This document shows positions 12,373 to 61,652 of a DNA stretch of 64,000 nucleotides, piece after piece (the stretch's first letter is position 1; each line of letters opens with the position of its first letter). Source of the DNA: Pristiophorus japonicus. Taxonomy: Eukaryota. The position numbers were made by a program, and so were the translations under genes. The stretch spans positions 95,728,001-95,792,000 of the forward strand of contig NC_091994.1 of assembly GCF_044704955.1 (NCBI RefSeq). The letters run 5' to 3'. Below the pieces are notes generated by a model, which worked only from the letters and a program-made list of their open reading frames with translations, was not told the DNA's origin and searched no databases.

Positions 12373-12713
12373 CAATAAATGGGAGGATACTGAGAGGTGT
12401 GGGGGACAGAGGGACCTTGGAGTGTATGTTCACAGATCCTTAAAGGTAGCAGGACAGGTAGATAAGGTAGTTAAAAAACATATGGAATGCTTTCCTTTAT
12501 TAGCCGAGGTATAGAATACAAGAGCAGGGAAGTTATACTAGAACTGTATACAACACAAACTAGGCCACAACTTTGAGTACTGCGTGCAGTTCTGGTCACC
12601 ACATTACAGGAAGGATGTGATTGCACTAGAAAGGGTGCAGAGATTTACGAGGATGTTGCAAGGACTGGAAAACTTTAGCTATAAGGAAAGATTGGATAGG
12701 CTGGGGTTGTTTT

Positions 12714-13670
12714 CATAGAAACATAGAAAAATAGGTGCAGGAGTAGGCCATTCGGCCCCTCGAGCCTGCACCACCATTCAATAAGATCATGGCTGATCAT
12801 TCACCTCAGTACCCCTTTCCTGCTTTCTCTCCACACCCCTTGATCCCTTTAGCCGTAAGGGCCATATCTAACTCCCTCTTGAATATATCTAACGAACTGG
12901 CATCAACAACTCTCTGCGGAAGAGAATTCCACAGGTTAACAATTCTCTTAGTGAAGAAGTTTCTCCTCATCTTGGTCCTAAATGACTTACCCCTTATCCT
13001 TAGACTGTAACCCCTGGTTCTGGACTTCCCCAACATCGGGAACATTCTTCCTGCATCTAACCTGTCCAGTCCCATCAGAATTTTATATGTTTCTATGAGA
13101 TCCCCTCTCATTCTTCTAAACTCCAGTGAATACAGGCCCAGTCGATCCAGTCTCTCCTCATATGTCAGTCCTGCCATCCCGGGAATTAGTCTGGTGAACC
13201 TTCGCTACACTCCCTCAATAGCAAGACCATCCTTCCTCAGATTAGGAGACCAAAACTGAACACAATATTCCAGGTGAGGCCTCACCAAGGCCCTGTACAG
13301 CTGCAGCAAGACCTCCCTGCTCCTATACTCATATCCCCTAGTTATGAAGGCCAATATGCCATTTGCCTTCTTCACCTCCTGCTGTACCTGCATGCCAATT
13401 TTCAATGACTGATGTACCATGACACCCAGGTCTCGTTGCACCTCCCCTTTTTCTAACCTGCCGCCATTCAGATAATATTCTGCCTTCAAGTTTTTGCCAC
13501 CAAAGTGGATAACCTCACATTTATCCACATTATACTACATCTGCCATGCATTTTCACACTCACCTAACCTGTCCAAGTCACCCTGCAGCCTCTTAGCATC
13601 CTCCTCACAGCTCACACCGCCACCTAGCTTAGTGTCATCTGCAAACCTGGAGATATTACACTCAATTCCT
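12714..13670 (-). mobile_element. CR1 LINE 3' fragment nested in a plus-strand CR1 (12375-12713 and 13668-14045)
   Basis: FADDTKLGG, RPHLEYCVQFW and NLWNSLP motifs; tail repeat; the host CR1 resumes after it. Confidence 0.9.
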
Positions 13671-14450
13671 TGGAACAGAAGAGGCTGAATTATGAGGAGC
13701 CTAAATAGAGTTGATAGGAGGGACCTCTTTCCCTTAGCAGAGGGGTCAATAACCCGAGCACACAGATTTAAAGTAGTTGATAGAAGGATTAGAGGGGAAA
13801 TGAGGAAAGATTCCCTCAACCAAAGGGTGGTGGGGGTCTGGAACTCACTGCCTGAAAGGGTGGCAGAGACAGAAACCCTCATCACATTTAAAAAGTACTT
13901 GGATGTGCACAAAGAGCCGTATTCTACAGGGCTACGCACCTGGTGCTGGAAGGTGGGATTGGGCTGGATGCTCTTTTGCAACCAGCACGGACACGATGGG
14001 CCGAATGGCCTCCTTCTGTGTCGTAAGTTTTATATGATTCCATGATACACTGTCCATCAAACACTCCCAGGGCAAGTACAGCGCGAGTTAGATACAGAGT
14101 AAAGCTCCCTGTACACTGTCCCATCAAACACTCCCAGGACAGGTACAGTGTAGTATGCTTAGTCCTCATCAACATAACTCCTACATGGAGACCCTTATTA
14201 TTACACACTTTGTATAATTCATATTCCAAAACCATTCCCTTCAATATCATACACAACATTTAATCCTCATTCTTATATATTCCATATTTTCTCGTCAATA
14301 TGGAATATTGTTTCCAGAACCAGGGGTCACAGTCTAAGGATAAGGGGTAAGCCATTTAGAACCGAGATGAGGAGAAACTGCTTCACTCAGAGAGTTGTGA
14401 ACCTGTGGAATTCCCTACCGCAGAGAGTTGTTGATGCCAGTTCGTTAGAT

Positions 14451-17045
14451 ATAGAAACATAGAAAATAGGTGCAGGAGTAGGCTATTCGGCCCTTCTAGC
14501 CTGCACCGCCATTCAATGAGTTCATGGCTGAACATGCAACTTCAGTACCCCATTCCTGCTTTCTCACCATACCCCTTGATCCCCCCCTAGTGGTAAGGAC
14601 TACATCTAACTCCTTTTTGAATATATTTAGTGAATTGGCCTCAACAACTTTCTGTGGTAGAGAATTCCACAGGTTCACCACTCTCTGGGTGAAGAAGTTT
14701 TTCCTCATCTCGGTCCTAAATGGCTTACCCCTTATCCTTAGACTGTGACCTCTGGTTCTGGACTTCCCCAACATTGGGAACATTCTTCCTGCATCTAACC
14801 TGTCTAAACCCATCAGAATTTTAAACGTTTCTATGAGGTCCCCTCTCATTCTTCTGAACTCCAGTGAATACAAACCCAGTTGATCCAGTCTTTCTTGATA
14901 GGTCAGTCCCGCCATCCCGGGAATCAGTCTGGTGAACCTTCGCTGCACTCCCTCAATAGCAAGAATGTCCTTCCTCAGGTTAGGAGACCAAAACTGTACA
15001 CAATACTCCAGGTGTGGCCTCACCAAGGCCGTGTACAACTGTAGCAATACCTCCCTGCCCCTGTACTCAAATCCCCTCGCTATGAAGGCCAACATGCCAT
15101 TTGCTTTCTTAACCGCCTGCTGTACCTGCATGCCAACCTTCAATGACTGATGTACCATGACACCCAGGTCTCGTTGCACCTCCCCTTTTCCTAATCTGTC
15201 ACCATTCAGATAATAGTCTGTCTCTCTGTTTTTACCACCAAAGTGGATAACCTCACATTTATCCACATTATACTTCATCTGCCATGCATTTACCCACTCA
15301 CCTAACCTATCCAAGTCGCTCTGCAGCCTCATAGCATCCTTCTCGTAGCTCACACTGCCACCCAACTTAGTGTCATCCGTAAATTTGGAGATACTACATT
15401 TAATCCCCTCGTCTAAATCATTAATGTACAATGTAAACAGCTGGGGCCCCAGCACAGAACCTTGCGGTACCCCATTAGTCACCGCCTGCCATTCTGAAAA
15501 GTACCCATTTACTCCTACTCTTTGCTTCCTGTCTGACAACCAGTTCTCAATCCATGTCAGCACACTACCCCCAATCCCATGTGCTTTAACTTTGCACATT
15601 AATCTCTTGTGTGGGACCTTGTCGAAAGCCTTCTGAAAGTCCAAATATACCACATCAACTGGTTCTCCCTTGTCCACTCTACTGGAAACATCCTCAAAAA
15701 ATTCCAGAAGATTTGTCAAGCATGATTTCCCTTTCACAAATCCTTGCTGACTTGGACCTATCATGTCACCTCTTTCCAAATGCGCTGCTATGACATCCTT
15801 AATAATTGATTCCATCATCTTACCCACTACCGAGGTCAGGCTGAGCGGTCTATAATTCCCTGTTTTCTCTCTCCATCCTTTTTTAAAAAGTGGGGTTACA
15901 TTGGCTACCCTCCACTCTATAGGAACTGATCCAGAGTCAATGGAATATTGGAAAATGACTGTCAATGCATCTGCTATTTCCAAGGCCACGTCCTTAAGTA
16001 CTCTGGGATGCAGACCATCAGGCCCTGGGGATTTATCGGCCTTCAATCCCATCAATTTCCCCAACACAATTTCCCGACTAATAAGGATTTCCCTCAGTTC
16101 CTCCTCCCTACTAGACCCTCTGACCCCTTTTATATCCGGAAGGTTGTTAGTGTCCTCCTTAGTGAATACCGAACCAAAGTACTTGTTCAATTGGTCCACC
16201 ATTTCTTTGTTCCCCGTTATGACTTCCCCTGATTCTGACTGCATGGGACCTACATTTGTCTTTACTAACCTTTTTCTCTTTACATATCTATAGAAACTTT
16301 TGCAATCCGTCTTAATGTTCCCTGCAAGCTTCTTCTCGTACTCCATTTTCCCTGCCCTAATCAAACCCTTTGTCCTCCTCTGCCGAGTTCTAAATTTCTC
16401 CCAGTCTCCGGGTTCGCTGCTATTTCTGGCCAATTTGTATGCCACTTCCTTGGCGTTAATACTATCCCTGATTTCCCTTGATAGCCACGGTTGAGCCACC
16501 TTCCCTTTTTTATTTTTACACCAGACAGGAATGTACAATTGTTGTAGTTCATCCATGCGGTCTCTAAATGTCAGCCATTGCCCATCCACAGTCAACCCCT
16601 TAAGTATCATTCGCCAATCTATCCTAGCCAATTCACACCTCATACCTTCAAAGTTACCCTTCTTTAAGTCCTGGACCATGGTCTCTGAATTAACTGTTTC
16701 ATTCTCCATCCTAATGCAGAATTCCACCATATTATGGTCACTCTTCCCCAAGGGGCCTCACACAACGAGATTGCTAATTAATCCTCTCTCATTACACAAC
16801 ACCCAGTCTAAGATGGCCTCCCCCCGAGTTGGTTCCTCGACATATTGGTCTAGAAAACCATCCCTTATGCACTCCAGGAAATCCTCCTCCACCGTATTGC
16901 TTCCAGTTTGGTTAGCCCAATCTATGTGCATATTAAAGTCACCCATTATAACTGCTGCACCCTTATTGCATGCACCCCTAATTTCCTGTTTGATGCCCTC
17001 CCCAACATCACTACTACTGTTTGGAGGTCTGTACACAACTCCCAC
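14451..17045 (-). mobile_element. Young CR1 LINE, 5'-truncated; ORF2 (partial endonuclease plus RT) nearly intact
   Basis: ORFs 16758-17045 (YRPP, MGDFN, ILDWV) and 14496-16751 (SDHN, YLDFQKAFDKV, GVPQGSVLGP, FTDD) are in frame, separated by one TGA (likely CGA decay); (TTTCTATG)n tail; nested in an older plus-strand CR1 3' end (14317-14450 and 17046-17220). Confidence 0.95.
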
Positions 17046-20356: not shown

Positions 20357-21023
20357 GTGGGAGACTGAAAGAGACTAGTGATAGGGTGGGGTGAGGCCAT
20401 GGAGGGATTTGTAAACAAGGATGAGAATTTTGAAATCGAGGCGTTGCTTAACCGGGAGCCAATGTAGGTCAGCGAGCCACATAATGAGATATTAGGACAG
20501 GTGACCTAAAGCTGGGTCAAAAGAGGTAGGTTTTATAGAGCATCTTAAAAAAAGGAGGGAGAGGTAGAGAGGCAGAGAGGTTTAGGGAGGGAATTCCAAA
20601 GCTTAGGGCCTACGCGGATGAAGGAAATCAAGGATGCACTAGAGGCCAGAATTGGAGGAGCGCAGACATCTCAAGAGGGTTTGTAGGGCTGCAGCAGGTT
20701 ACAAAGATAGGGAGGGGCGAGGCCATGGAGGAATTTGAACGCAAGGATCAGAAATACAAATTTGAGGCTTTGCTAGAATTCCAGAGCTTTGGGCCTAAGC
20801 AACTGGAGGCACAGCCGCCAATGCTGGAGCGATGAAAATCGAGAATGCACAACAGGCCAAAATTGGAAGAGCCCAGAGACCTCGGAGGGTTGTGGGGCTG
20901 GAGGAGGTTACAGGGACAGGGAGGGGCGAGGCCATGGAGGGGTTTGAAAACAAGGATGTATCATAGAATGATACTGCACAGAAGAAGGTCATTTCGATCA
21001 TCGTGCCTGTATCGGCTCTTTGG

Positions 21024-22453
21024 TAGAAACATAGAAAATAGGTGCAGGAGTAGGCCATTCGGCCCTTCTAGCCTGCACCGCCATTCAATGAGTTCATGGC
21101 TGAACATGCAACTTCAGTACCCCATTCCTGCTTTCTCGCCATACCCCTTGATCCCCCTAGTAGTAAGGACCTCATCTAACTCCTTTTTGAATATATTTAG
21201 TGAATTGGCCTCAACAACTTTCTGTGGTAGAGAATTCCACAGGTTCACCACTCTCTGGGTGAAGAAGTTCCTCCGCATCTCGGTCCTAAATGGCTTACCC
21301 CTTATCCTTAGACTGTGACCTCTGGTTCTGGACTTCCCCAACATTGGGAACATTCTTCCTGCATCTAACCTGTCTAACCCCGTCAGAATTTTAAATGTTT
21401 CTATGAGGTCCCCTCTCATTCTTCTGAACTCCAGTGAATACAAGCCCAGTTGATCCAGTCTTTCTTGATAGGTCAGTCCCGCCATCCCGGGAATCAGTCT
21501 GGTGAACCTTCGCTGCACTCCCTCAATAGCAAGAATGTCCTTCCTCAGGTTAGGAGACCAAAACTGTATACAATACTCCAGGTGTGGCCTCACCAATGCC
21601 CTGTACAACTGTAGCAACACCTCCCTGCCCCTGTACTCAAATCCCCTTGCTATGAAGACCAACATGCCATTTGCTTTCTTAACCGCCTGCTGCACCTGCA
21701 TGCCAACCTTCAATGACTGATGTACCATGACACCTAGGTCTCTTTGCACCTCCCCTTTTCCTAATCTGTCACCATTCAGATAATGGTCTGTCTCTCTGTT
21801 TTTACCACCAAAGTGGATAACCTCACATTTATCCACATTATACTTCATCTGCCATGCATTTGCCCACTCACCTAACCTATCCAAGTCGCTCTGCAGCCTC
21901 ATAGCATCCTTCTCGTAGCTCACACTGCCACCCAACTTAGTGTCATCCGTAAATTTGGAGATACTACATTTAATCCCCTCGTCTAAATCATTAATGTACA
22001 ATGTAAACAGCTGGGGCCCCAGCACAGAACCTTGCGGTACCCCATTAGTCACCGCCTGCCATTCTGAAAAGTACCCATTTACTCCTACTCTTTGCTTCCT
22101 GTCTGACAACCAGTTCTCAATCCACGTCAGCACACTACCCCCAATCCCATGTGCTTTAACTTTGCACATCAATCTCTTGTGTGGGACCTTGTCGAACGCC
22201 TTCTGAAAGTCCAAATATACCACATCAACTGGTTCTTCCCTTGTCCACTCTACTGGAAACATCCTCAAAAAATTCCAGAAGATTTGTCAAGCATGATTTC
22301 CCTTTCACAAATCCATGCTGACTTGGGCCTATCACGTCACCTCTTTCCAAATGCACTGCTATGACATCCTTAATAATTGATTCCATCATTTTACCCACTA
22401 CCGATGTGAGGCTGACCGGTCTATAATTCCGTGTTTTCTCTCTCCCTCCTTTT
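21024..22453 (-). mobile_element. Young CR1 LINE 3' part (RT), same family
   Basis: ORF 21114-22268; ~97% identical to ~14451-15880; nested in another CR1 3' end. Confidence 0.95.
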
Positions 22454-27616: not shown

Positions 27617-28730
27617 GTCAGGGGTATGAGTTATGAGCAAAGACTTGGGTTCTTCAGCCTGGAAAGGATGTGTCCGAGACGTCGCATGTAAGATAATCAA
27701 TAGTATGGAAAGAGTTCATCCGGAATTCTACTTTAAATTAAACTATGGGAGTTTGACAAGGGGACGGGTTTAAACTAGTAAACGGTAACTTCAGGATTGA
27801 TATCAGGAAGATTTTCATGCAGAAAGTGATCACCACTTGGAATGGACATCCAGATAAAATAGTCGGGGAAAAACCCTGGAATCATTTAACAAATAAGTGG
27901 CTGCAGTAATGGGGAAGGATGAGGTCAAATTTCCAGTGTGCGCAGAGTTATCTGGTCTCAGTTAGGAAGACAATAGGGATTCGATGTCCATTAGCTCAGA
28001 AGAGGAAAAAACAAAATCAAGCCTGAGTCAGGGTTAGGTTCTTGCTTATGATCATTATTCAGGGCGATTTGGACAGAAGATATTTGTAGACAGAAATATG
28101 GCATATGAAATATAACAGACATAGAAACAGAAGTAAGCTATTTAGTCCCTTGAACCTGTTCCACCATTAGATCATGGCTCATCTGTGATCTAACTCCATA
28201 TACCCGCCTTCGCTCCATATCCCTTAATACATTTGGTTAACAAAAATCTATCAATCTCAGATTTAAAATTAATCAACTGCCATTTGCAGAAGAGAGTTCC
28301 TAACTTCTAGCACCCTTTTTGTGTTTCCTAACTTCACTCCTGAAAGGTCAGGCTCTAATTTAATCCAAGACTCCCCAACCAGCGCAGAGAGTTTCTCGTT
28401 ATCTTCCCTGACCATTCCCCTTAATATCTTGAAACTCTGATTAAATCACCCTTAATCTTCTAAATTCAAGGGAATACAACCCTAGTTTGTGTAATCTCTC
28501 CCCATAATTTAACCTTTGGAGTCCAGGTATCATTCGACACTGCACTCCCTCCAAGGCCAATGTTTCCTTCCTAAGGTGTGGTGCCCAGATCTGGTCTAAC
28601 CAGGGTTTGTATAGGTGAGGCATGACTTCTATCCCCTTGTATTCTAATCCTCTAGATATAAAGGCCAGCATTCCATTAGCCTTTTTGATTATTTTCTGTA
28701 CCTATGCATGTCATTTTCATGATCAATATA

Positions 28731-29670
28731 CAGGGATTAAATGTAGTATCTCCAAATTTGCGGATGACACTAAGTTGGGTGGCAGTGTGAGTTGCGAGGA
28801 GGATGCTATGAGGCTGCAGAGTGACTTGGATAGGTTAGGTGAGTGGGCAAATGCATGGCAGATGAAGTATAATGTGGATAAATGTGAGGTTATCCACTTT
28901 GGTGGTAAAAACAGAGAGACAGACTATTATCTGAATGGTGACAGATTAGGAAAAGGGGAGGTGCAACGAGACCTGGGTGTCATGGTACATCAGTCATTGA
29001 AGGTTGGCATGCAGGTACAGCAGGCGGTTAAGAAAGCAAATGGCATGTTGGCCTTCATAACGAGGGGATTTGAGTACAGGGGCAGGGAGGTGTTACTACA
29101 GTTGTACAGGGCCTTGGTGAGGCCACACCTGGAGTATTGTGTACAGTTTTGGTCTCCTAACTTGAGGAAGGACATTCTTGTTATTGAGGGAGTGCAGCGA
29201 AGGTTCACCAGACTGATTCCCGGGATGGCGGGACTGACATATCAAGAAAGACTGGATCAACTGGGCTTGTATTCGCTGGAGTTCAGAAGAATGAGAAGGG
29301 TTCTCATAGAAACATTTAAAATTCTGATGGGTTCAGACAGGTTAGATGCAGGAAGAATGTTCCCAATGTTGGGGAAGTCCAGAACCAGGGGTCACAGTCT
29401 AAGGATAAGGGGTAAGCCATTTAGGACCGAGATGAGGAGAAACCTCTTCACCCAGAGTGGTGAACCTGTGGAATTCTCTACCACAGAAAGTTGTTGAGGC
29501 CAATTCACTAAATATATTCAAAAAGGAGTTAGATGTAGTCCTTACTAGTATCAAGGGGTATGGCGAGAAAGCAGGAATGGGGTACTGAAGTTGCATGTTC
29601 AGCCATGAACTCATTGAATGGTGGTGCAGGCTCGAAGGGCCTACTCCTGCACCTATTTTCTATGTTTCTA
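28731..29670 (+). mobile_element. Young CR1 LINE 3' fragment nested in an older minus-strand CR1 (28115-28730 and 29671-29810)
   Basis: ORF 28622-29497 with FADDTKLGG..RPHLEYCVQFW; ttctatgtttcta tail. Confidence 0.92.
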
Positions 29671-29809
29671 TCCCTAGGTCTCTTTGCACCTCCAGTGCTT
29701 TTAGCTTTTCACCATTTAGAAAGTACTCTGATCTATCCTTTTTAGATCCAAAGTGAATGACCTCATGCTTGCCTACATTAAAATCCATTTGCCACTGTTT
29801 TGCCCATTT

Positions 29810-30592
29810 TGATAGGAAAAATAGAAAAGCAGAGTATTTTTAAACGATGAGCGATTGGGAAATGTTGGTGTTCAGAGGGACCTGGGTGTCCTTGTACACG
29901 AATCACTGAAAGTTAACATGCAGGTACAGCAAGCAATTAAGAAAGCAAATGGTATGTTGGCCTTTATTATAAGAGGATTTGAGTACAAGAGTAAAGATCT
30001 CGTATTGAAATTATATAGGGCCCTGGTGAGACCACATCTGGAGTATTGTGTACAGTTTTGATCTCCTTACCTAAGGAAGGATACACTTGCCATAGAGGGA
30101 GTGCAATGAAGGTTCACCAGACTGATTTCTGGAATGGGGGGATGGTCCTACGAAGAGAGATTGAGTAGACTAGGCCTATATTCTTTAGAGTTTAGAAGAA
30201 TGAGAGGTAATCGCATTGAAACATACAAAATTCTTACAGGGGTAGACAGGGTAGATGCCAGGAGGATGTTTTCCCTGGCTGGGAAGTCTAGAACCAGGGG
30301 TCACAGTCTCAGAATAAGGGGTCGGTCATTTAGGACTGAGACGAGGAGAAATTTCTTCACAGAGGGTGGTGAATCTTTGGAATTCTCTACCTCAGAGGAC
30401 TGTGGATGCTCAGTATATATATATTGAGTATATTAGGACAGAGATCGATAGAATATTAAGGGAATCAAGGGATATGGGGATAGTGAGGGTAAGTGGAATT
30501 GAGGTAGAAGATCAACCATGATGATCTTATTGAATGGCGGAGCAGGATTGAGGAGTAATGGCCTACTCCTGCTCTTAATTCTTATATTCTTA
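29810..30592 (+). mobile_element. CR1 LINE 3' fragment
   Basis: QRDLGVLVH..RPHLEYCVQF; ttcttatattctta tail. Confidence 0.85.
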
Positions 30593-38264: not shown

Positions 38265-39090
38265 CATGGCAGATGAAGTATAATGTGGATAAATGTGAGG
38301 TTATCCACTTTGGTGGTAAAAACAGAGACAGACTATTATCTGAATGGTGACAGATTAGGAAAAGGGGAGGTGCAACGAGACCTGGGTGTCTTGGTACATC
38401 AGTCACTGAAGGTTGACATACAGCAAGCGGTTAAGAAAGTAAATGGCATGTTGGCCTTCATAGCGAGGGGATTTGAGTACAGGGGCAGGGAGGTGTTACT
38501 ACAGTTGTACAGGGCCTTGGTGAGGCCACACCTGGAGTATTGTGTACAGTTTTGGTCTCCTAACTTGAGGAAGGACAGTCTTGCTATTGAGGGAGTGCAG
38601 CAAAGGTTCACCAGACTGATTCCCGGGATGGCGGGACTGACATATCAAGAAAGACTGGATCAACTGGGCTTGTATTCACTGGAGTTCAGAAGAATGAGAG
38701 AGGATCTCATAGAAACGTTTACAATTCTGATGGGTTTAGACAGGTTAGATGCAGGAAGAATGTTCCCAATGTTGGGGGAAGTCCAGAACCAGGGGTCAGT
38801 CTAAGGAGAAGGGGTAAGCCATTTAGGACCGAGATGAGGAGAAACTTCTTCACCCAGAGAGTGGTGAACCTGTGGAATTCTCTACCACAGAAAGTTGTTG
38901 AGGCCAATTCACTAAATATATTCAAAAAAGGAGTTAGATGTAGTCCTTACTACTAGGGGGATCAAGGGGTATGGCGAGAAAGCAGGAATGGGGTTCTGAA
39001 GTTGCACGTTCAGCCATGAACTCGTTGAATGGCAGTGCAGGCTCGAAGGGCCGAATGGCCTACTCCTGCACCTATTTTCTACATTTCTAG
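38265..39090 (+). mobile_element. Young CR1 LINE 3' fragment
   Basis: Same family as 28731-29670; ends ~180 bp from the RPL22 poly(A) signal. Confidence 0.92.
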
Positions 39091-39271
39091 ACCATAGCTT
39101 AACTGGTACCAGTGGAATTTCATGAGTCAGCATCTACAGAAGCAATGCGGAAATGCAAATTGCATTACATTTACGAGACCTTATGTTCACAGTAATACAG
39201 CAAAGCTAGATACATTATTGCACAATTCTTCTGTACAAATAAAAACATAACCCAGAGTTGCGTGTTTTTCC

Positions 39272-41671: not shown

Positions 41672-44313
41672 TTATTAGCAATGGTAAGTTTTTAACCCCC
41701 TGCTGTGTACGGATAGGAGGCATTGAATTGTATGTGTTAATAAGGTCGTCATAATCACCAAATGAGAAAGAGCTCTGCCTGGTGCATCACTGAGCCACAC
41801 AGACACTACAATGGAGCCAGAGAGCAGAAATATCAGCCAGGGTTCCTACTCGATTATGAACCAATGACCCCTGCTGAAAAACAGGCTGATGTGGAGGCTG
41901 GGTAAAGACTACACAGGGTTCGGCTGTGATACCTGCCCCAGCCTGAGACACGTGCACTGGAGAAGGCGCCAGCATCTGTACAACCACAAGGGGTCTGCAA
42001 CTTCAAGACAGAATGGAGGACAGAACTATAGTTAAAACATTCGCCATTTTATCACAGAGCCCTTGTATTTGTAGACTTACATTAAGCATCGGACCCAATG
42101 AGAAAATTCGCTGTATAGTTACCCCACACTACTGTTATATCCAACTCATCGGGTGTGAGACAAAACCAGCACCCAACAATGTCCAGCATAGGCAAACTAA
42201 GTCAGTGTCACTGACAGTGGACAACAGTGCAATTCTGCCCCGGCAACTCCATCTAAGCCATACAGAGCAATGATGTCACTAGGAATTCCGTGAAATGCAT
42301 GGGTGGGTGGGTTGAATAGTTTGCTTCTGTCTTCCTCTGAAATGGCTCCATGTTAAAGGCATGGTATAAATGTAAACAGCTTTACTGTGTCCACTTGGAC
42401 TGTGAAACAATGGGCAGTTGTAGAATTAGATTCCAGATTTTGTCACATCAAATTCAGGTTGTGACTGGAGTGTGTATATTGAGTTCTACGACACGAGGGT
42501 GAAATATTGATAGCTACAGTTCAGTCAGTGGTGGTGCAAGTGGTGGAAACAATTAGAAGCGGTAGATTAAAAATATAAGGAATAGAGTAGGCCATACAGC
42601 CCCTCCAGCTTGCTCTGTTATTCAATAAGATCATGGCTGATCTTCGACCTCAACTTCACTTTCCCGCCCTATGCCCATTAAGAGTATCACAAGAAACGTT
42701 AGTACGACATTAAACTGCGCTGACTTACATGTGTTCTCTGCAGTAACACTGCAGCTGCTGCAGTGCCTCCCAATGAGCTTGGGTTAATGAATGGCGGGGG
42801 TGGGGGACAGAGTATCAGCAGCCACCCTGGGTGGCTGTTATCCCTAGCAGCCAGCCAAAAGGGACACTGGCAGACTGTGAGCAGACGAGCTGCCTAGCAT
42901 CTCAACAGGAGGTTTTCAAATAAGGATAATTTACCTTGGAAATAAAATTACCGATAAACACAATCTGGCTTCTTGAGCAGCAGTGTTCAGGAAAATTGCT
43001 CTGTGTTAGGCAGCCAATCAGATACAAGGGTTGAATGTGTGTTAAATTTGAGAGATCATTCCTGCGGTATATTAACTCTTTGTATCCTGAGTAACCTTCT
43101 TGATTTTGCTTCAACTAGCTTGATTGGTAGAGTACTCTGAACATTTATCACTGTTTTTGAATCGCTCAGCATCTGGCTACATGGCTGATAACTTTCTTTA
43201 CGTTTTATCTGCTGCAGTTGCATTTTTCACCCCCTCCTTGGCATCGAACTACAAGGGAATAAAAGCTGCACTTCTGACTTACAGCAGAAGAGATCAGGGT
43301 GAACCTGATGGCTCAGCTAGTCCCCGCACATCCATTCCCCAGCACTGCTCTCCCTCACCTTGAGCATAAAGATCTACAAAACCCTGACTTTAGAAATGCG
43401 ATTTCACAGAAAGTAAAGCACATGTAACCATCAAAGCTTCTTCCACACAAGCACACAGCAAAGTAATTCCAAATCACCTGTTTTGGCCTCAGCAACTGGG
43501 AAGGAAAGCAGAAGCAAAACCCTCCATTCTCCAGGAGAGCTCCTGTTGCCAAACCACCGGAAGCACTCCGTTAGAATGATCTCCAAAATGCTTTGGAAGC
43601 AACACCCTCAGTCGATAAATGCACTACCAGTGCAGCACTGAGCAGGAAGGTCGTGCATTCAATCAGTGGCCTGTGCCAAGTGAGCAGTCTCTGGTAGTGG
43701 TTTGGCTCCAGAACTGGGTTCAGAGCATCTGGTTCTCACTCCCAACATTGAGCCCCCTGCTGGAAAGCGCACATGTCCCTAAAGTCACAGAGTTGCCTGG
43801 GTTTACAGGGTCAGACTGGATACCTCAGGTTCAGGATCACACGTGAGGACAGAATACTGGAGGGAGTCTGTGTAACTGTATCCGAGCACAGGTCAGCATC
43901 GTTGGGGCGGGGGGGGGGGGCGGGGGGCAACGATGACGAGAAAGTCACCTGACTTGATCATCGATGTGATGTTAAAATTTACCAAAATGCACTTCACCTG
44001 GACTTCACTATAGTGGGCTGGTGCAGATACAGGACATGTACATCCCAGCAAGCCCCAGACACATGAAAGGGAGGCACCAAAGAATTACGCAAGTTGCAAG
44101 GGGTCAGCTCCAGGTTGTGGTGGCACCAAACTACCCCAAAACCACAGAAATACTATGCTATGACAGAAAGCAGGCAACAAACACAACTAAGGGAAGTCTT
44201 TATCTCTTGCTTACATTCAGACCCACATACAGCATCTAGGTCTAAGCATTTGGAGGTGCAGTCTCCTGCTTAAGTTGCTCCATTTGCACTGCTGAGTACT
44301 GAACGCAAGGAAC

Positions 44314-46583
44314 ATAAACTACTGCCCCACCTCAACCACCCGGAAAATAAACCACTGCCCCACCTCAACCACCCGGGAGATAAACCACTGCCCCACCTCA
44401 ACCACCCGGGAAATAAACTACTGCCCCACCTCAACCACCCGGGAGATAAACCACTGCCCCACCTCAACCACCCGGGAAATAAACTACTGCCCCACCTCAA
44501 CCACCCGGGAGATAAACCACTGCCCCACCTCAACCACCCGGGAAATAAACTACTGCCCCACCTCAACCACCCGGGAGATAAACCACTGCCCCACCTCAAA
44601 CACCCGGGAAATAAACCACTGCCCCACCTCAACCACCCGGGAAATAAACCACTGCCCCACCTCAACCACCCGGGAGATAAACCACTGCCCCACCTCAACC
44701 ACCCGGGAAATAAACCACTGCCCCACCTCAACCACCCGGGAGATAAACCACTGCCCCACCTCAACCACCCGGGAAATAAACCACTGCCCCACCTCAACCA
44801 CCCAGGAGATAAACCACTGCCCCACCTCAACCACCCGGGAAATAAACCACTGCCCCACCTCAACCACCCGGGAGGTAAACTACTGCCCCACCTCAACCAC
44901 CCGGGAAATAAACCACTGCCCCACCTCAACCACCCAGGAGATAAACTACTGCCCCACCTCAACCACCCGGGAGATAAACCACTGCCCCACCTCAACCACC
45001 CAGGAAATAAACCACTGCCCCACCTCAACCACCCAGGAAATAAACCACTGCCCCACCTCAACCACCCGGGAAATAAACCACTGCCCCACCTCAACCACCC
45101 GGGAAATAAACCACTGCCCCACCTCAACCACCCGGGAGATAAACCACTGCCCCACCTCAACCACCCGGGAAATAAACCACTGCCCCACCTCAACCACCCG
45201 GGAAATAAACCACTGCCCCACCTCAACCACCCGGGAGATAAACTACTGCCCCACCTCAACCACCCGGGAGATAAACCACTGCCCCACCTCAACCACCCGG
45301 GAAATAAACCACTGCACCACCTCAACCACCCGGGAGATAAACCACTGCCCCACCTCAACCACCCAGGAAATAAACCACTGCCCCACCTCAACCACCCGGG
45401 AAATAAACCACTGCACCACCTCAACCACCCGGGAGATAAACCACTGCCCCACCTCAACCACCCAGGAAATAAACCACTGCCCCACCTCAACCACCCGGGA
45501 GATAAACCACTGCCCCACCTCAACCACCCGGGAAATAAACCACTGCCCCACCTCAACCACCCGGGAAATAAACCACTGCCCCACCTCAACCACCCGGGAG
45601 ATAAACCACTGCCCCACCTCAACCACCCGGAAATAAACTACTGCACCATCTCAACCACCCGGGAGATAAACCACTGCCCCACCTCAACCACCCGGGAGAT
45701 AAACTACTGCCCCACCTCAACCACCCGGGAGATAAACCACTGCCCCACCTCAACAACCCGGGAGATAAACTACTGCCCCACCTCAACCACCCAGGAGATA
45801 AACTACTGCACCATCTCAACCACCCGGGAGATAAACCACTGCCCCACCTCAACCACCCGGAAATAAACTACTGCCCCACCTCAAACACCCGGGAGATAAA
45901 CTACTGCCCCACCTCAACCACCCAGGAGATAAACCACTGCCCCACCTCAACCACCCGGGAGATAAACCACTGCCCCACCTCAACCACCCGGAAATAAACC
46001 ACTGCACCACCTCAACCACCCGGGAAATAAACTACTGCACCACCTCAACCACCCGGGAGATAAACCACTGCCCCACCTCAACCACCCGGGAGATAAACTA
46101 CTGCCCCACCTCAACCACCCAGGAGATAAACTACTGCCCCATCTCAACCACCCAGGAGATAAACCACTGCCCCATCTCAACCACCCAGGAGATAAACTAC
46201 TGCCCCACCTCAACCACCCAGGAGATAAACCACTGCCCCATCTCAACCACCCAGGAGATAAACTACTGCCCCACCTCAACCACCCGGGAGATAAACTACT
46301 GCCCCACCTCAACCACCCGGGAGATAAACTACTGCCCCACCTCAACCACCCGGGAAATAAACCACTGCCCCATCTCAACCACCCAGGAGATAAACTACTG
46401 CCCCACCTCAACCACCCAGGAGATAAACCACTGCCCCATCTCAACCACCCAGGAGATAAACTACTGCCCCACCTCAACCACCCGGGAGATAAACTACTGC
46501 CCCACCTCAACCACCCAGGAGATAAACTACTGCCCCACCTCAACCACCCAGGAGATAAACTACTGCCCCACCTCAACCACCCG
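44314..46583. repeat. 33-bp minisatellite, ~69 copies, in RPL22 intron 2
   Basis: Unit ATAAAC(C/T)ACTGC(C/A)CCACCTCAACCACCC(G/A)GGA(G/A); head-to-tail with no spacers. Confidence 0.98.
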
Positions 46584-48824
46584 TCCTCTCAAGATCTTAA
46601 CTATTTTGCTGGATCAGATGTCCAACTTTCTACAACTCCCTCTTTGAAACCCTCCACAATCAAGATTTCCAATGCCCCTCCCCAAAGTACCAAAACGGAG
46701 CTAATCAAAACACAAATGGCATTTCATGACCGCTAACGACTTCTCTTCTCAGCCAGTATAGTCATGGCCCCATCCTTTTCTTCATCTGCATGCTGCCTCT
46801 TGGTGACTTCAACGGACATGGGGTCAGCTTCCACGTGTACACTGATAGCATGCAGCTTTGCCTTAAATCCTCCACCGCCTCGGTGTTGTTACAAAGCGCA
46901 CCTGACATCCAGCCTTGGATGAGCTGCAATTTTCCCCAACTAAACACTGGGAAGACTGAAGCCATCATCCATGGGCCGTCACAAACATTGTACTCTCACC
47001 ACTGACTCCACCTCCCTCGCCAGACAGTCTCAGCATCCCATTTCACCCCGAGCGAAGCATCCGACGTAACATCCTCTCCATCAGAGTAACTATTTCCATA
47101 TCGTAACATTGCCCACATCTATACTGAAACCACCATTCTATGTCCAGGCCACCTCCAGCCTCAGCTAACCCAATGCTTCCGTGGTCAACCTCCCATTTTC
47201 CATCCTTCATAAACTTCAGCTCATCCAAAACTCCGCTCACCCACCACCCCTGCCCTCACTGACTTGACACCTCAAATTCTAAGTTTAAATGTTCCCATTC
47301 AGATCACTTCATGGTCTCATCCTAAAATTCCTCCATTTTTCACACCATCAGTGTTAATTCCTAATGCCTACAGCTATCTAAGTTCTACACTCTCCCTGCC
47401 TCTTCTCCTTACAACCCACCCTTAACCAAGCCTTTGGTCACCCTCCTAATAATGCATTTAGCTTGGCTCCTTCCTTATGCCCCTGTGAAACACCTGTAGA
47501 TGTTAACGGCATTATATAAATGCAGGTATTGTTGAGCACATAGCACTCCCAACTCACCGTTCCTATGGACATATGAAATGCTCATGAAAAGATCAGTCAC
47601 TCTCATCCCAATGTTGATTTCTGATACTGCAGCCTTGCCCAGGACCTGTCCTTTAGTGGCTCCCAAAAACCAGAGGGCAGCACCAAAAAAAACAAGCATC
47701 TCTTTCCAATTGGAATGACATGGGACCAGTGTCAGGCTAGCAGAGGAAGAGAGGTGGTGTTACCTGAAGGCTGCAGTTATCCCATGGATCACTGCTCTCC
47801 CAGAGCTCCATGGGTAATATGGACATTTTTTTTTAGCCAAATTTGATGATACTTCTTCAACTCAGTTCCTCCCTACCATAATGTACGGTTGGAAAAGCAG
47901 AGACTTATTCAGCGGTTGCACCAAGGGACTCCAGTTAAATCAAGTCTCCTGAAAGAGCAATTACAGAGAGAAGCACAGGTTCGGTGCAGCCAGGTTTTCT
48001 TGCCTCCACATAGCTGGGTTGTGGAGCCGTAACTGCATTTATATTGGCAGACAGCACACAAAAACAATACACACCAAGCTGGAGGAGTTTGGTTAATTTC
48101 TATAGTTACAGACAGAAGTTGAGATTAAGGTCCAAGTTTCAGGCTGCACTGCTGGCAAGTGTCTAACTCACAAACAAGAGCGCTTTAGCCTTTAAATATC
48201 AACAGATAATTAAGTTGATTAAAAAGATAGGAATGTCAGCATATGTATCTGCAGGTATTGTATTACCTATCAAGGAGTATGTACTCTGCTGTATTTCATG
48301 ACCTGAGTGCATGCAAATTCTTCTATACAAGAATGACAAAATCTGTTGGTATTAATAATGCAAAAGATCTGCAAGTTAATGGGAGCATGGATTTAAAACT
48401 AGAGTCTCCTGGTGCGCAGTTAGACAACAGAGGCAAAATTTTGGAAAATAGCATGTAACACTGTGGGTGAAATTTTAACATTACAGCTACTTGAATTGCA
48501 AAGAATAACCATCAATTTAATTATATAGATTTCCAAATTTGGACGGTGTCTTTAAATACCCAGATAGCTCAAGACAGTTATACAGTGAGCAACTAAAGAT
48601 GTTAATTGAAATACTGCACACAATTGGAAAGCCTATTGGATGGTGCATGCTTTCTAAGAGCATATTGGTACCAATACACTCACTACACCTAGTGACAACA
48701 CTGCTAGAATTAAACAGTTATTTCAACAGACAAACATTCTGTATCCACCCTGCCACCTGAACGTTGTTTTTTTTAATACTGATGCTAAAACACATTCAGA
48801 TTAATAGGCACCATCACGTACAAT

Positions 48825-56356: not shown

Positions 56357-56567
56357 TATTGTGTTCCTAACACAGATGAGACTGCACACAGGGAGGTTAA
56401 AGTAACAGTGACCTCAGTCTTTAATAAGACACTTCAGAGTGAGGAACAGGCCTTAGGGGTCGGCTTATATACCGTGCTCCCAAGGGATGCTGGGATTCCT
56501 TGGGACTTCAGGGGATGAGCTCCCTGGTGGCGGAACATGGGAGTGCATGTTTTACAGATACACAACA
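56357..56567 (-). repeat. 3' LTR of the Gypsy element
   Basis: tattgtg...cacaaca on plus; 9 mismatches in 211 bp versus the other LTR. Confidence 0.93.
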
Positions 56568-59500
56568 TCACTACCCCACAAAGTCAAAGTGAAAACTATT
56601 TACAAGGCGAGGCAGTTGGAAGCCTTTCTTTCCCTGGTGGACCGCCTCGGTACAAATGTCTGTTCTGGTGTGTCGGCTGTGCCCTCGCTGGGCTGGCATG
56701 TTGTTGGCCCTGAAGGGCTGCTGGGTGAGCCTGGCCTTGCTGGGCTGTTGGGCGTGATGGGTTCGATTTCCTGGTCCGGCGTGGTGTCGTTGATCCTTTG
56801 GGTGTGTGTTGTGGGCTCGAAAAAGGTGGTGTCTGCTGTGGGTTGTTCAGGGCAGTCTGTGAACCGCAGCCTCGTTTGGTCCAGGTGCTTTCTGCAAATT
56901 TGTCCATTGTCTAGTTTGACTACAAACACCCAACTCCCTTCTTTAGCTATCACCGTGCCCGTGATCCACTTGGGACCATGTCCATAGTTTAGCACATACA
57001 CAGGGTCATTCAGATCAATTTCCCGTGACACAGTGGCGCGACCATCATTTACATTTTGTTGATGCCGCCTGCTCTCTACCTGATCATGGAGGTTGGGGTG
57101 AACCAGCGAGAGTCTGGTTTTAAGTCCTTTTCATGAGTAGCTCCGCCGGGGGCACCCCTGTGAGTGAGTGGGGTCTCGTGCGGTAGCTGAGCAGTACTCG
57201 GGACTGCGGGTTTGGAGTGAGCCTTCTGTGACTCGTTTAAGGCTCTGTTTGATTGTTTGTACTGCCCGCTCTGACTGCCCATTGGAGGCTGGTTTAAACA
57301 GGGCCGAGGTGACATGTTTGATCCCATTGCGGGTCATGAATTCTTTAAATTTGGCACTGGTGAAACATGGCCCGTTGTCACTGATCAGTATGTCAGGCAG
57401 GCCGTGGGTGGCAAACATGGCCCTCAGACTTTCAATGGTGGTGGTGGCGGTGCTTCCCGACATTATTTCACATTCAATCCATTTTAAAAAAGCACCCACC
57501 ACCACCAGGAACATTTTACCGAGAAATGGGCCCGCATAGTCGACATGGATCCTCGACCATGGTCTGGAGGGCCAGGACCACAAACTTAGTGGTGCCTCTC
57601 TGGGCGCGTTGCTCAACTGAGCACACACACTGCATTGTCGTACACAGGACTCGAAGTCACAGTCGGTACCGGGCCACCACACATGGGATCTGGCTATCGC
57701 TTTCATCATTACTACACCCGGATATGTGCTGTGGAGATCCAAGATGAACGTTTCCCTGCCCTTTTTTGGTAGCACTACGCGGTTACCCCACAACAGGCAG
57801 TCTGCCTGAATGGACAGCTCGTCCTCTCGCCGCTGGAACGGCTTGATTGGCTATTGCATTTCAACGGGGATGCTGGCCCAGCTCCCATGCAGTACACAGT
57901 TTTTTACTCGGGACAGCACAGGATCTTGGCTGGTCCAAGTCCTAATCTGGCGGGCAGTGACAGGTGACTTATAATTTTCAAACGCTTCCATGACCATCAA
58001 CAAGTCTGCGGGCTGCGCCACCATCAACAAGTTTGCAGGCTGCACCATTTCCACCCCCGTGGTGGGCAATGGTAGCCGACTGAGAGCATCCGCACAGTTC
58101 TCGGTGCCTGGCCTGTGGCGGATGGTATAGTTATACACTGATAGCGCGAGTGCCCACCTTTGCATGTGGGCTGAGGCATTAGTATTTATCCCCTTGTTTT
58201 CAACGAACAGGGATATGAGGGGCTTACGATCGGTTTCCAGCTCAAATTTGAGGCCAAACAGGTACTGATGCATTTTCTTTACCCCGAACACACACGCTAA
58301 TGCCTCTTTCTCAATCATGCTGTAGGCCCTCTCGGCCTTAAACAAGCACCTAGAAGCATAGGCGACAGGTTGCAACTTCCCCGCAATGTTAGCTTGTTGT
58401 AATACACACCCGACTCCGTACGACAACGCATCACATGCTAGCACAAGTCTTTTACACGGGTTATACAATACAAGCAGCTTGTTGGAGCATAAAATGTTTC
58501 TGGCTTTCTCAAAAGCAATTACTTGTTTTTTTTCCCCATACCCAGTTGTCACCTTTACACAATAATAAATGTAAGGGCTCTAAGAGAGTGCTTAACCCCA
58601 GTAGGAAGTTACCAAAATAGTTAAGGAGTCCTAGGAACGACCGCAGCTCCGTGACGTTCTGTGGCCTGGGCGCGTTCCTGATAGCCTCTGTCTTGGCGTC
58701 TGTGGGCCGAAAGCCGTCCACCGTGATCTTTCTCCCCAAAAACTCCACTTCTGTTGCAATGAAGACGCATTTCGACCTCTTCAGCCGCAGCCCTATGCGA
58801 TCCATTCACTGGAGGACCGCCTCCAGGTTTTGTAGGTGCTCGACGGTGTCCCGACCCATGACCAATATGTCGTCCTGAAAGACCACCTTGTGTGGTACCG
58901 ACTTGAGTAGGCTCTCCATGTTTCTCTGGAAGATCGCTGCAGCTGACCGAATTCCAAACGGGCATCTGTTGTAGATGAACAGTCCCTTGTGCGTGTTGAT
59001 GCAGGTGAGGCCCTTCGGAGACTCCTCCAGCTCCTACGTCATGTAGGCCGAAGTCAGGTCGAGCTTGGTGAACGTCTTGCCACCTGCCAGCATCGCAAAT
59101 AGGTCGTCTGCCTTAGGTAGCGGGTATTGGTCCTGTAGTGAGAAACGACTAATAGTTACTTTATAATCGCCGCAAATCTTGACCGTGCCAGCACTTTTGA
59201 GTACTGGAACAATCGGGCTGGCCCACTCGCTGAATTCCACTGGGGAGGTGATGCCCTCACGTTGCAGCCTGTCCAGCTCGATTTCCACTCTCTCCCTCAT
59301 CATGTGAGGTACCGCCTTGTGGTGAATGGGTCGTGCCTCTGGGACCAAGTGGATCCACACCTTCGCCTACTGGAAAAGTTTCCAATGCCTGGCTCAAAAA
59401 GGGAAGGAAATTTGTTAAGAACCTGGGTACATGAGGCCTCATCGACATGTGATAGCGCTCGGATGTCATCCCAGTTCCAGCGGATTTTGTCCAGCCAGCT

Positions 59501-60042
59501 CCTTCCAAGCAGTGTGGGGCCATCGCCTGGGACAATCCAGAGTGGCAGTTCGTGCACCGTGCCCTCGTAGGTGACCTTGACCATGGCGCTGCCCAGGACA
59601 GAGATGAGCTCTTTGGTGTACGTTCTCAGTTTCATGTGGAAGGGGCTCAGGGCTGGTCTGAATGCCTTGCTGCACCACAGCCTCTCAAACATCTTTTTAC
59701 TCATGATGGATTGGCTAGCGCCAATGTCCAGTTCTATGGCTACAGGTAAGCCTTTCAATTTTACGTTTAGCATTATAGGTGGACATTTCGTCGAAAATGT
59801 GTGCACCCCGTGTACTTCAGCATCTGCCTCCTCTGAGGCTCGAAATTGCTTTGATCCACCATGGATCGAACTTCCTCTGTGATGTGGTGGTTAGCAGGTT
59901 TTGCAGAGCTTGCCGCTCGTTTGGTGGACATATCGCAATGGCCTTACTGAGGGTCGGTGTCTCTACAGTCAAAAGTTTTCGTAGGATGGTCTCGTGGCCA
60001 ATGCCCAGTACAAAAAAGTCTCTGAGCATTTGCTCCAGGTAG

Positions 60043-60285
60043 GAGGTGGGTGGGGTGGCTTGACCCATCCACCTCCACGGAGGTGTGTGGGGGACCTGAC
60101 CCATCCACCTCCATGGCACGAACCTGGTATTGCAGTACTTCCAGGAACGGTGCAGTGGCTCTAGGCCTTTTGGCTAAGAGCATTGGCGCAGAGTGATCCT
60201 TGATGTGTGCAAGGTGACCTCTGGCGTTTGTGATTTGACAAAGAATTGGAACGATTGGCTACGAATTAAAAAAAAAAAAAAAAAA
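60043..60285 (+). mobile_element. Poly(A)-tailed retroposon with rearranged U2 snRNA-derived modules, inserted in Gypsy gag
   Basis: TSD ATTTGCTCCAGGTAG (60028-60042 and 60286-60300); A-tail 60268-60285; 60122-60154 matches the U2 3' end and 60164-60179 matches the U2 5' stem; gag reads GYLEQ|insert|YLEQMLRDFF across it. Confidence 0.88.
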
Positions 60286-60706
60286 ATTTGCTCCAGGTAG
60301 CCATCAAACTCACATTGTCCTGCAAGTCGCCTTAGCTCGGCAACGTAGCTCGGCACTTCCTGACCTTCAGATCGCTGGCACGTGTAGAACCGATACCTCA
60401 CCATCAGCACACTCTCCTTTGGGTTAAGATGCTCCGGAACCAGTGTACACAGCTCCTCATACGACTTATCTGTGAGTTTCACCGAAGCCAGAAGATTCTT
60501 CATGAGGCTGTAGGTCGGTGTCTCGCAGACTGTGAGGAGGACCGCTCTCCTTTTTGCAGCGCTTCCTTCTCCATCCAGCTCATTGGCTACAAAGTACTGG
60601 TCTACCTGTTCGACATAGGCTTCCCAGTCCTCACCCTCCGAGAACTTCTCCAGGATGCCCACAGTTTGCTGCATCTTTACGTTGGATTCGTATTCTCGTC
60701 GGCAGT

Positions 60707-60917
60707 TATTGTGTTCCTAACACAGATGAGGCTGCACACAGGGAGGTTAAAGTAACAGTGACTTCAGTCTTTAATAAGACACTCCAGAGTGAGGAACAGG
60801 CCTTCGGGGTCGGCTTATATACAGTGCTCCCAAGGGATGCTGGGATCCCTTGGGACTTCAGGGGATGAGCTCTATGGTGGCGGAACATGGGAGTGCATGC
60901 TTTACAGATACACAACA
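60707..60917 (-). repeat. 5' LTR of the Gypsy element
   Basis: Direct repeat of 56357-56567, adjacent to the PBS and the gag start. Confidence 0.93.
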
Positions 60918-61652
60918 GGTTGGGTCTCTACTCATTGGAATTCAGAAGATTGAGAGGGGATCTTATCGAAACGTATAAGATTATGAGGGGGCTTGACATG
61001 GTGGATGCAGGAAGACTGTTTCCAATGATGGGGGACACTAGAACTAGGGGGCATAATCTTAGAATAAGGGGCCGCCCATTTAAAACTGAGATGAGGAAAA
61101 ACGTATTTTCTCAGAGGATTGTAAATCTGTAGAATTCGCTGCCTCAGAGAGCTGTGGAAGCTGGGACATTGAATACATTTAAGACGGAGATAGACCGTTT
61201 CTTAACCGATAAGGGAATAAGGGGTTATGGGGAGTGGGCAGGGAAGTGGACCTGAGTCCATGATCAGATCAGCCAAGATCGTATGGCCTACTCCTGCTCC
61301 TATTTCTTATGTTCTTATGTAGACTCGCCCAGTGACTTAGCAAATAAATATATTACCAGCTGAGGTACTGAGCCATACAGATCAGGAAGGCGCTGGGGCA
61401 ACACCAGTCTGTAGTTATATCTGATCTTAGCCAGAGTGGTGGGATAGGTGTCCCTGGGCTTGCCAAAGCTCCCACTCCTGTCATTGACCCCTGCTGGAAA
61501 GCATGTGTGTGGACTGTTGGGTGATAATTTGGTGAGGGTTGTTAGTGATGCCCCCATGAAAAGAAAGAAAGCCTTGGATTTATATAGTGCCTTTCATGAC
61601 CACTGGATGTCTCAAAGCCAGTTAAGTACTTTTGGAGTGTAGTCACTGTTGT

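Follow-up and report, generated by a model that had tools for sequence, protein, structure and literature searches.

A SINEU-type U2-U1-U2 retroposon in Pristiophorus japonicus, likely transcribed from a captured U2 promoter and likely mobilised by a Keno-like LINE

Retroposons headed by U1- and U2-derived sequence have been described as SINEUs, which according to PMC4494074 are known only from crocodilians, none having been found outside them; the same crocodilian range is given in a 2017 review (PMC5381603). SINEU-1 is described as growing by the addition of snRNA pieces, and the account given of these elements names no promoter and no transcript, leaves their mode of transcription open and suggests an R2-like dependence on flanking transcription (PMC4494074). 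Two LINEs targeting U2 genes are presented in PMC4640811, i.e. Keno, of the Tx1 clade and with an APE endonuclease, and Utopia, with a restriction-like endonuclease; the Utopia site is given as U2 nt 39 in Phytophthora numbering, and the Keno site as the same. Within the open literature searched, neither a SINEU from cartilaginous fish nor promoter capture was found reported, and the family described here may already be catalogued in Repbase or Dfam.

The window, i.e. the whole analysed stretch of 64,000 nucleotides, contains an insert within a Gypsy-type LTR element, the Gypsy label having been assigned by eye from the LTR pair and gag/pol-like frames (Table 1). Two exact 15-mer direct repeats enclose 243 bp, with 18 A at the 3′ end. 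The initial annotation, made from the letters only, had listed this insert length, the A18 tail, the perfect 15-bp target-site duplication (TSD) and a row of hairpins (two resembling U2 stem-loop III, then stem-loop IV, U2 stem I and a tail hairpin); all of these are present, and all of the hairpins fold. It was also right that the Sm site and the branch-point motif are absent from this copy, full-length copies having an Sm-type U-run, and its figure of ~4% divergence between the Gypsy LTRs agrees with the 9 of 211 bases that differ. The reading frames of the Gypsy element are interrupted, and another member of its family was hit independently at the corresponding site (L049). Folding of the insert gave z = −3.6, with 0 of 200 shuffles equally stable. 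Rfam returned a weak U2 match for the window stretch (17.8 bits, E 2.2); matches to Prion_pknot, miRNAs and PVT1 lay below their cut-offs and were discarded as chance. The tail of the window copy had no match to U1, to U2 or to the LINE described below. Apart from the insert, the window holds a 33-bp unit in a long tandem array (44170-46700, about 69 copies, 94-97% alike) and many 3′ fragments of what we take to be CR1/L2-like LINEs (12700-15400, 21000-22000, 28700-30400, 38300-39100 and 60921-61320), one of which adjoins the Gypsy LTR.

Table 1. Features of the insert and of its host element in the window
Feature	Position	Strand	Remarks
Left target-site duplication	60028..60042	+	15 bp; last 3 bases match the element too (5′-junction microhomology)
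SINEU-type element (by structure), 5′-short copy	60043..60285	+	starts just 3′ of the Sm-type U-run; without the ~118-nt U2-U1 head
U2 stem-loop III derivative, copy a	60042..60076	+	predicted −28.1 kcal/mol (host U2 hairpin −15.1)
U2 stem-loop III derivative, copy b (tandem duplicate)	60079..60112	+	
U2 stem-loop IV and 3′ end	60116..60154	+	33-mer, 31/33 to nt 153-185 of the U2 gene of its own genome
Second U2 5′ stem I	60160..60182	+	21/23 identical to U2 nt 7-29
Unique tail with hairpin; hairpin loop subfamily-defining	60183..60267	+	homologous to S2 tail
Poly(A) tail	60268..60285	+	18 A
Right target-site duplication	60286..60300	+	
Host Gypsy-type LTR element	56357..60917	-	LTRs 56357-56567 and 60707-60917, 95.7% identical

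A 28-mer spanning the junction of U2 stem and tail had 4,855 exact matches genome-wide (reversed control 0). A DNA search of the insert's own genome (5.9 Gb) gave 655 candidates, of which 40 were scored, 40/40 at 99-100% identity. The proposal, made from the window alone, of a young multi-copy retroposon of U2 modules that is 5′-truncated there is supported. The full element is non-coding and ~345 nt long, and many copies reach ~118 nt further 5′ than the window copy, to U2 +1. With the U1 and U2 genes of the same genome as references, its order was read as U2 5′ end, U1 stem-loop I, a short linker and an Sm-type U-run in the 5′ part, and as two stem-loops III, stem-loop IV, U2 stem I, a ~85-nt tail and poly(A) in the 3′ part. 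The head corresponds to U2 nt 1-29 (nt 2-29 identical), with a looser match to about nt 35 by eye; U1 nt 3-57 are present at 77% identity, a score equalled by 0 of 500 shuffles, the stem-loop IV segment extends to U2 nt 186, and the second stem I is U2 nt 7-29. For a full-length copy Rfam gave U2 at 58.6 bits, above the gathering score of 46, and U1 at E 0.073; its 11 matches included no tRNA, 5S or SRP. The start at U2 +1, the U1 sequence, the Sm-type site of the family and the copies at the start of U2 genes had escaped the initial annotation.

By structure, the element is assigned to the SINEU type. A functional U2 or U1 variant snRNA was rejected, the pairing motifs for branch point and 5′ splice site not being intact: the U2 part ends inside the branch-point motif, and the U1 5′-splice-site motif is altered at position 6. 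The U2/U1 head and internal T4 and T5-6 runs exclude a classical Pol III SINE, and a U1 or U2 origin of the tail was dismissed after 237/500 and 369/500 shuffles, respectively, scored equally. Stem-loop III has diverged in sequence, yet its predicted fold is stronger than the host's (Table 1). The first 100 matches listed on C1 yielded a sample of 95 copies, whose 82 two-hairpin members were aligned; variants common to at least three copies fell in 23 of 76 unpaired vs 3 of 105 paired columns (nominal p 3e-7, which overstates the case, columns not being independent events), private variants were spread evenly (19/76 unpaired, 26/105 paired), and the stem-loop IV loop had no shared variant among the 82. 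The hairpins look selected because shared variants avoid both the paired columns and this loop, which points to selection on the fold of the source-copy RNA. Junctions common to thousands of copies, along with diagnostic subfamilies, argue for spread from master copies and not for independent chimeras.

Subfamily B, with a canonical Sm site, accounts for 495 of the exact matches, ~90% of the 4,855 copies lying outside it. Over 214 aligned bases, the subfamily of the window copy shows 10 differences from the array copy, as well as indels, and it looks older, being more divergent and having shorter tails. A sister family, S2 (500 exact matches; e.g. G000:C1:8729349 and others, L197-L226), consists of a near-complete array-type U2 with a small deletion, then U2 stem I and a homologous tail, the similarity of which to the element tail scored above 1,000 of 1,000 shuffles. 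Array-type U2 differs from S2 by 2 mismatches in 186, C9-type U2 by 10 in 181. S2 retains the Keno site, and the studied element, which outnumbers S2 about tenfold, is often inserted there (U2 nt 38), giving nested stacks. Both families would derive from an older unit of U2 head plus tail by addition of snRNA pieces, and a head variant with real U2 nt 1-37 (L064) is a sign of repeated head addition.

An exact TSD, of 15 bp at the median, could be defined for 84 of the 157 solo copies. At these 84 sites the nick context is a purine at −2 (82%), a pyrimidine at −1 (82%), then A, then A/T; RY/A, the slash marking the nick, occurs at 51/84 sites vs 34% background, the A at +1 being in part a consequence of the method. 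This motif also fits the site before U2 nt 38, and poly(A) immediately precedes U2 nt 38 at 93 exact sites genome-wide. Among 16 fetched regions, a LINE of 5.7 kb with ORFs of 581 and 1,147 aa was found (L171 1542-7279, minus strand, and G000:C19 69.62-69.72 Mb), many copies of which are packed at one U2 array edge. ORF1 has RNA-binding and CCHC domains and ORF2 an APE endonuclease, RT and zf-RVT; a perfect octamer lies in the 5′ UTR, some 55 nt downstream of +1. The complete copies (n = 5) are 99.2-99.9% alike, four of them starting at U2 +1. The closest proteins, Tx1-like ORF2s from amphibians and fish, match at 37-49%, and one of them bears the name 'transposon TX1 149 kDa protein'; human L1 ORF2p is much more distant. 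Short matches to Heterodontus proteins at 71-81% point to a shark as the probable host. Enzyme type and insertion site, as these are given for Keno in PMC4640811, suggest a Keno-like Tx1 element, which in array units is followed by U2 nt 38-191, i.e. sits at the conserved U2 site. The anatomy of the retroposon and the presence of this LINE at the same U2 site support the connection to Keno/Tx1 and the kinship with SINEU that had been suggested from the window.

The LINE has 228 exact 3′-end matches and many insertion sites outside U2; three sites in other repeats are used by both LINE and SINE, within 3 nt, and another U2-type element directly adjoins 8/30 LINE and 32/189 SINE 3′ ends. The strongest non-U2 hot spot is a single nucleotide of one repeat that, in the sample, took up 8 SINE, 1 S2 and 1 LINE copies (L009, L083, L136, L244, L279 and others). 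The pair L225/L226, a probable duplication, was left out of the hot-spot count, and a shared-site group of 6 was discarded as an artefact of missed tandem copies. Aligned with each other, SINE and LINE have nothing alike beyond the U2 head and no common 3′ tail, and the LINE would therefore probably recognise the SINE RNA by its poly(A) or its fold; other Tx1/L1 families might cut the same sites. In a displaced piece of U2 array (L191, G000:C14:76771000-76775000; LINE end, U2 nt 38-191, spacer, upstream DNA and next LINE head), possibly a 3′ transduction, the U2 head that belongs to the LINE has itself received a short SINE copy.

Some units of the tandem U2 array carry a full-length SINE copy that starts precisely at U2 +1, with normal upstream DNA in front. 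These units have no separate U2 nt 1-37 and no TSD; poly(A) comes next, then U2 nt 38-191 and the usual 3′ flank. They number 18 (17 of 23 pattern matches plus one at a contig end) vs 259 units with a U2-type start, and one further +1 copy lies on C9, in a U2 gene of a second type; compared with intact U2 genes, the upstream DNA agrees at 230/230 bases in the array and 300/300 in the C9 type. The other six of the 23 matches are dispersed copies, which have in front of them the final four bases of the array upstream DNA but no further array sequence, and which were not counted as promoter-linked. Of the heads counted behind U2 upstream DNA in the C19 block that was fetched, 15/15 belong to the LINE (10), whose own U2-derived head occupies the same +1 position, or to the SINE (5), i.e. 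U2 genes there are disabled by both. One LINE copy is a plain TSD insertion with U2 nt 1-53 left in front. The C9 type (L159-L168, L178; G000:C9 111.0-113.8 Mb) has different upstream DNA and is repeated every 18-21 kb; in many cases a LINE fragment, a piece of S2 and another U2 3′ part come after it. Beside the U2 array, L192 (G000:C19:69725000-69734999) has long stop-free stretches in three frames and is probably a GC-rich tandem repeat.

A motif scan of the 300 nt upstream of the array units found neither an octamer nor a clear PSE match, and U1 genes in the same scan had an octamer at about −205; the term promoter rests, for the array, on position and on the seeding of S2 by array-type U2. 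A look-up of RNA records listed for the array copy returned none, which counts neither for nor against its expression. Only subfamily B was seen at +1, and the window's subfamily had no copy behind either upstream type by exact patterns, which miss variants and collapsed arrays. The 18 array copies, which may descend from one or two insertions, represent two successive derived variants. A pattern for both variants gave 29 matches (18 array, 11 dispersed), the earlier variant having 2 array and 9 dispersed copies and the later one 16 and 2. Ten of the dispersed copies were aligned (the eleventh was viewed only) and differ from array copies by 0-1 bases over 322-342; they start at +1 to +19, have tails of 12-75 nt and carry no array upstream DNA. 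The simplest reading, on parsimony, is that array RNA starting at U2 +1 seeded them.

Since the youngest full-length copies lie exactly at the U2 gene start, the U2 promoter has likely been borrowed. Taken together, the sequence data make it probable that the family is a SINEU-type U2-U1-U2 retroposon, likely transcribed from a captured U2 promoter and likely mobilised by the Keno-like LINE of the array. The LINE endonuclease would nick U2 DNA before nt 38, or RY/AW look-alikes elsewhere, and reverse transcription would be primed on the poly(A) of the element. The end of the cDNA would be complementary to U2 nt 1-28 and could then pair, or later recombine, with the target U2 gene, whose 5′ end would be replaced by the element head, the promoter being inherited. 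Source copies arising in this way would be multiplied or erased by array turnover. The snRNA hairpins and Sm site that were kept likely let the RNA pass as an snRNP with broken branch-point and 5′-splice-site pairing motifs, and short copies would likely be due to a template that terminates at the 3′ border of the Sm U-run or halts the enzyme there.

Read-through from neighbouring promoters, as proposed for crocodile SINEU-2 (PMC4494074), is the rival that survives best, and it is considered unlikely. The sources would then be ordinary dispersed insertions, and the copies in U2 genes dead ends amplified by array turnover, which would suit the roughly 90% of copies that belong to subfamilies without a U2-promoter-linked member (B = 495/4,855) and the lack of a recognised PSE or octamer upstream of array units. 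However, 55 of the 95 sampled copies start at U2 +1 to +18, full-length dispersed copies have no common 5′ extension by eye, and each of the two successive +1 variants of the array has identical dispersed copies. Domestication of the array-borne element as a variant snRNA that serves the host, which would make the dispersed copies no more than its retropseudogenes, is highly improbable: the U2 gene context, the retained Sm site and stem-loop IV loop and the constrained stems would fit, but the element has a poly(A) tail and interrupts U2 genes at the Keno site, both pairing motifs are altered, subfamilies turn over fast, insertion is in nested stacks, and copies are about tenfold more numerous than those of the U2-like S2. 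A non-autonomous LINE derivative or LINE 3′ end, the latter raised in the initial annotation, or else a set of independent template-switch chimeras, is just as improbable and already largely refuted, the U2-derived 5′ head common with the LINE and the L064 head variant being outweighed by the lack of any other sequence in common with the LINE, of an ORF and of any full-length copy running past U2 +1, and by identical junctions across thousands of copies.

By a motif rule, non-B copies (n = 83) comprised 36 short, 5 intermediate and 42 with the head kept; the 12 B copies of the C1 sample were all full. Of 37 short copies examined, 36 start at −10 to +11 of the first base of stem-loop III, i.e. 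at the 3′ border of the U-run (the start is ambiguous in the 6 that have one hairpin only), and 1 was unplaced. They occur in 5 of 6 tail types, which argues for a recurring process and not for one master, and about 5/30 S2 copies start at the equivalent place by eye. In a larger B sample, with its canonical Sm site, 8/71 copies were short vs 36/83 non-B (Fisher p 1e-5, the subfamilies being few and differing in age). snRNAs without Sm are described as subject to XRN1 decay (PMC7293007). A 5′-to-3′ trimming of poorly Sm-loaded RNA up to the hairpin is favoured because B has fewer short copies, and is given somewhat less than an even chance; release of the RT at the U-run after the hairpin is given about one chance in three, and an RT block by the Sm ring only a small one, its pure form being weakened by the same B counts.

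A further and speculative step would make the element a parasitic snRNP mimic, in which takeover of the U2 5′ end gives access to the snRNA machinery, an Sm ring and nuclear re-import to the target, with the quality of the Sm site setting the trimming rate; this is held to be rather doubtful. If it were true, the Keno enzyme would possibly be ferried along to the target, and the genome copies would be a record of snRNA quality control.

What appears to be new is that a SINEU architecture is aimed at the U2 genes themselves and that both candidate source copies and an intact partner are present there. With candidate sources at U2 +1, identical dispersed daughters and an intact LINE, promoter capture is directly testable. 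Very young copies are possible population markers; one of them (L352, G000:C3804:342060) lies apparently just past the start codon of what is presumably a histone H2B-like gene, labelled by eye. If true, the proposal implies that U1/U2-headed SINEs arose a second time, likely independently, and that there is a third SINE promoter route, namely an external promoter acquired via site-specific insertion with a homologous head. It would also offer a candidate answer to how SINEUs are transcribed, a question left open in PMC4494074 together with whether snRNA-headed elements form a distinct retroposon class.

Compared with the known systems, the element resembles U2 retropseudogenes and snRNA/L1 template-switch chimeras in its snRNA sequence, TSD and poly(A); those are one-off copies, whereas this family has shared junctions, subfamilies and constrained hairpins. 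Like R2 in the 28S rRNA genes, it combines site-specific insertion in a tandem RNA-gene array with a likely reliance on a host-gene promoter. R2 resides in Pol I rDNA, whereas here a Pol II snRNA gene has its 5′ end replaced, likewise by a non-coding passenger; unlike R2, the element should need no ribozyme release, because it replaces the 5′ end of the U2 gene. The partner LINE resembles Keno, described in PMC4640811, in its APE endonuclease and in having the 3′ part of U2 behind it at the conserved site, which the SINE shares; unlike Keno and Utopia, the studied element is non-coding, and the partner LINE has many non-U2 sites and its own U2-derived head at +1. With SINEU-1, -2 and -3, as described in PMC4494074, it has in common a length below 500 nt, a head derived from U1/U2, snRNA pieces added repeatedly at the 5′ end, a poly(A) tail, internal T-runs and tandem insertion; for those families a Tx1 group clustering with Keno is the suggested mobiliser, and here a Keno-like LINE is the likely one. 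It differs from them, in a comparison by description, in its non-crocodilian host, in targets that include U2 nt 38 where SINEUs have Mariner-N4, and in copies that stand at U2 +1 beside an intact partner LINE.
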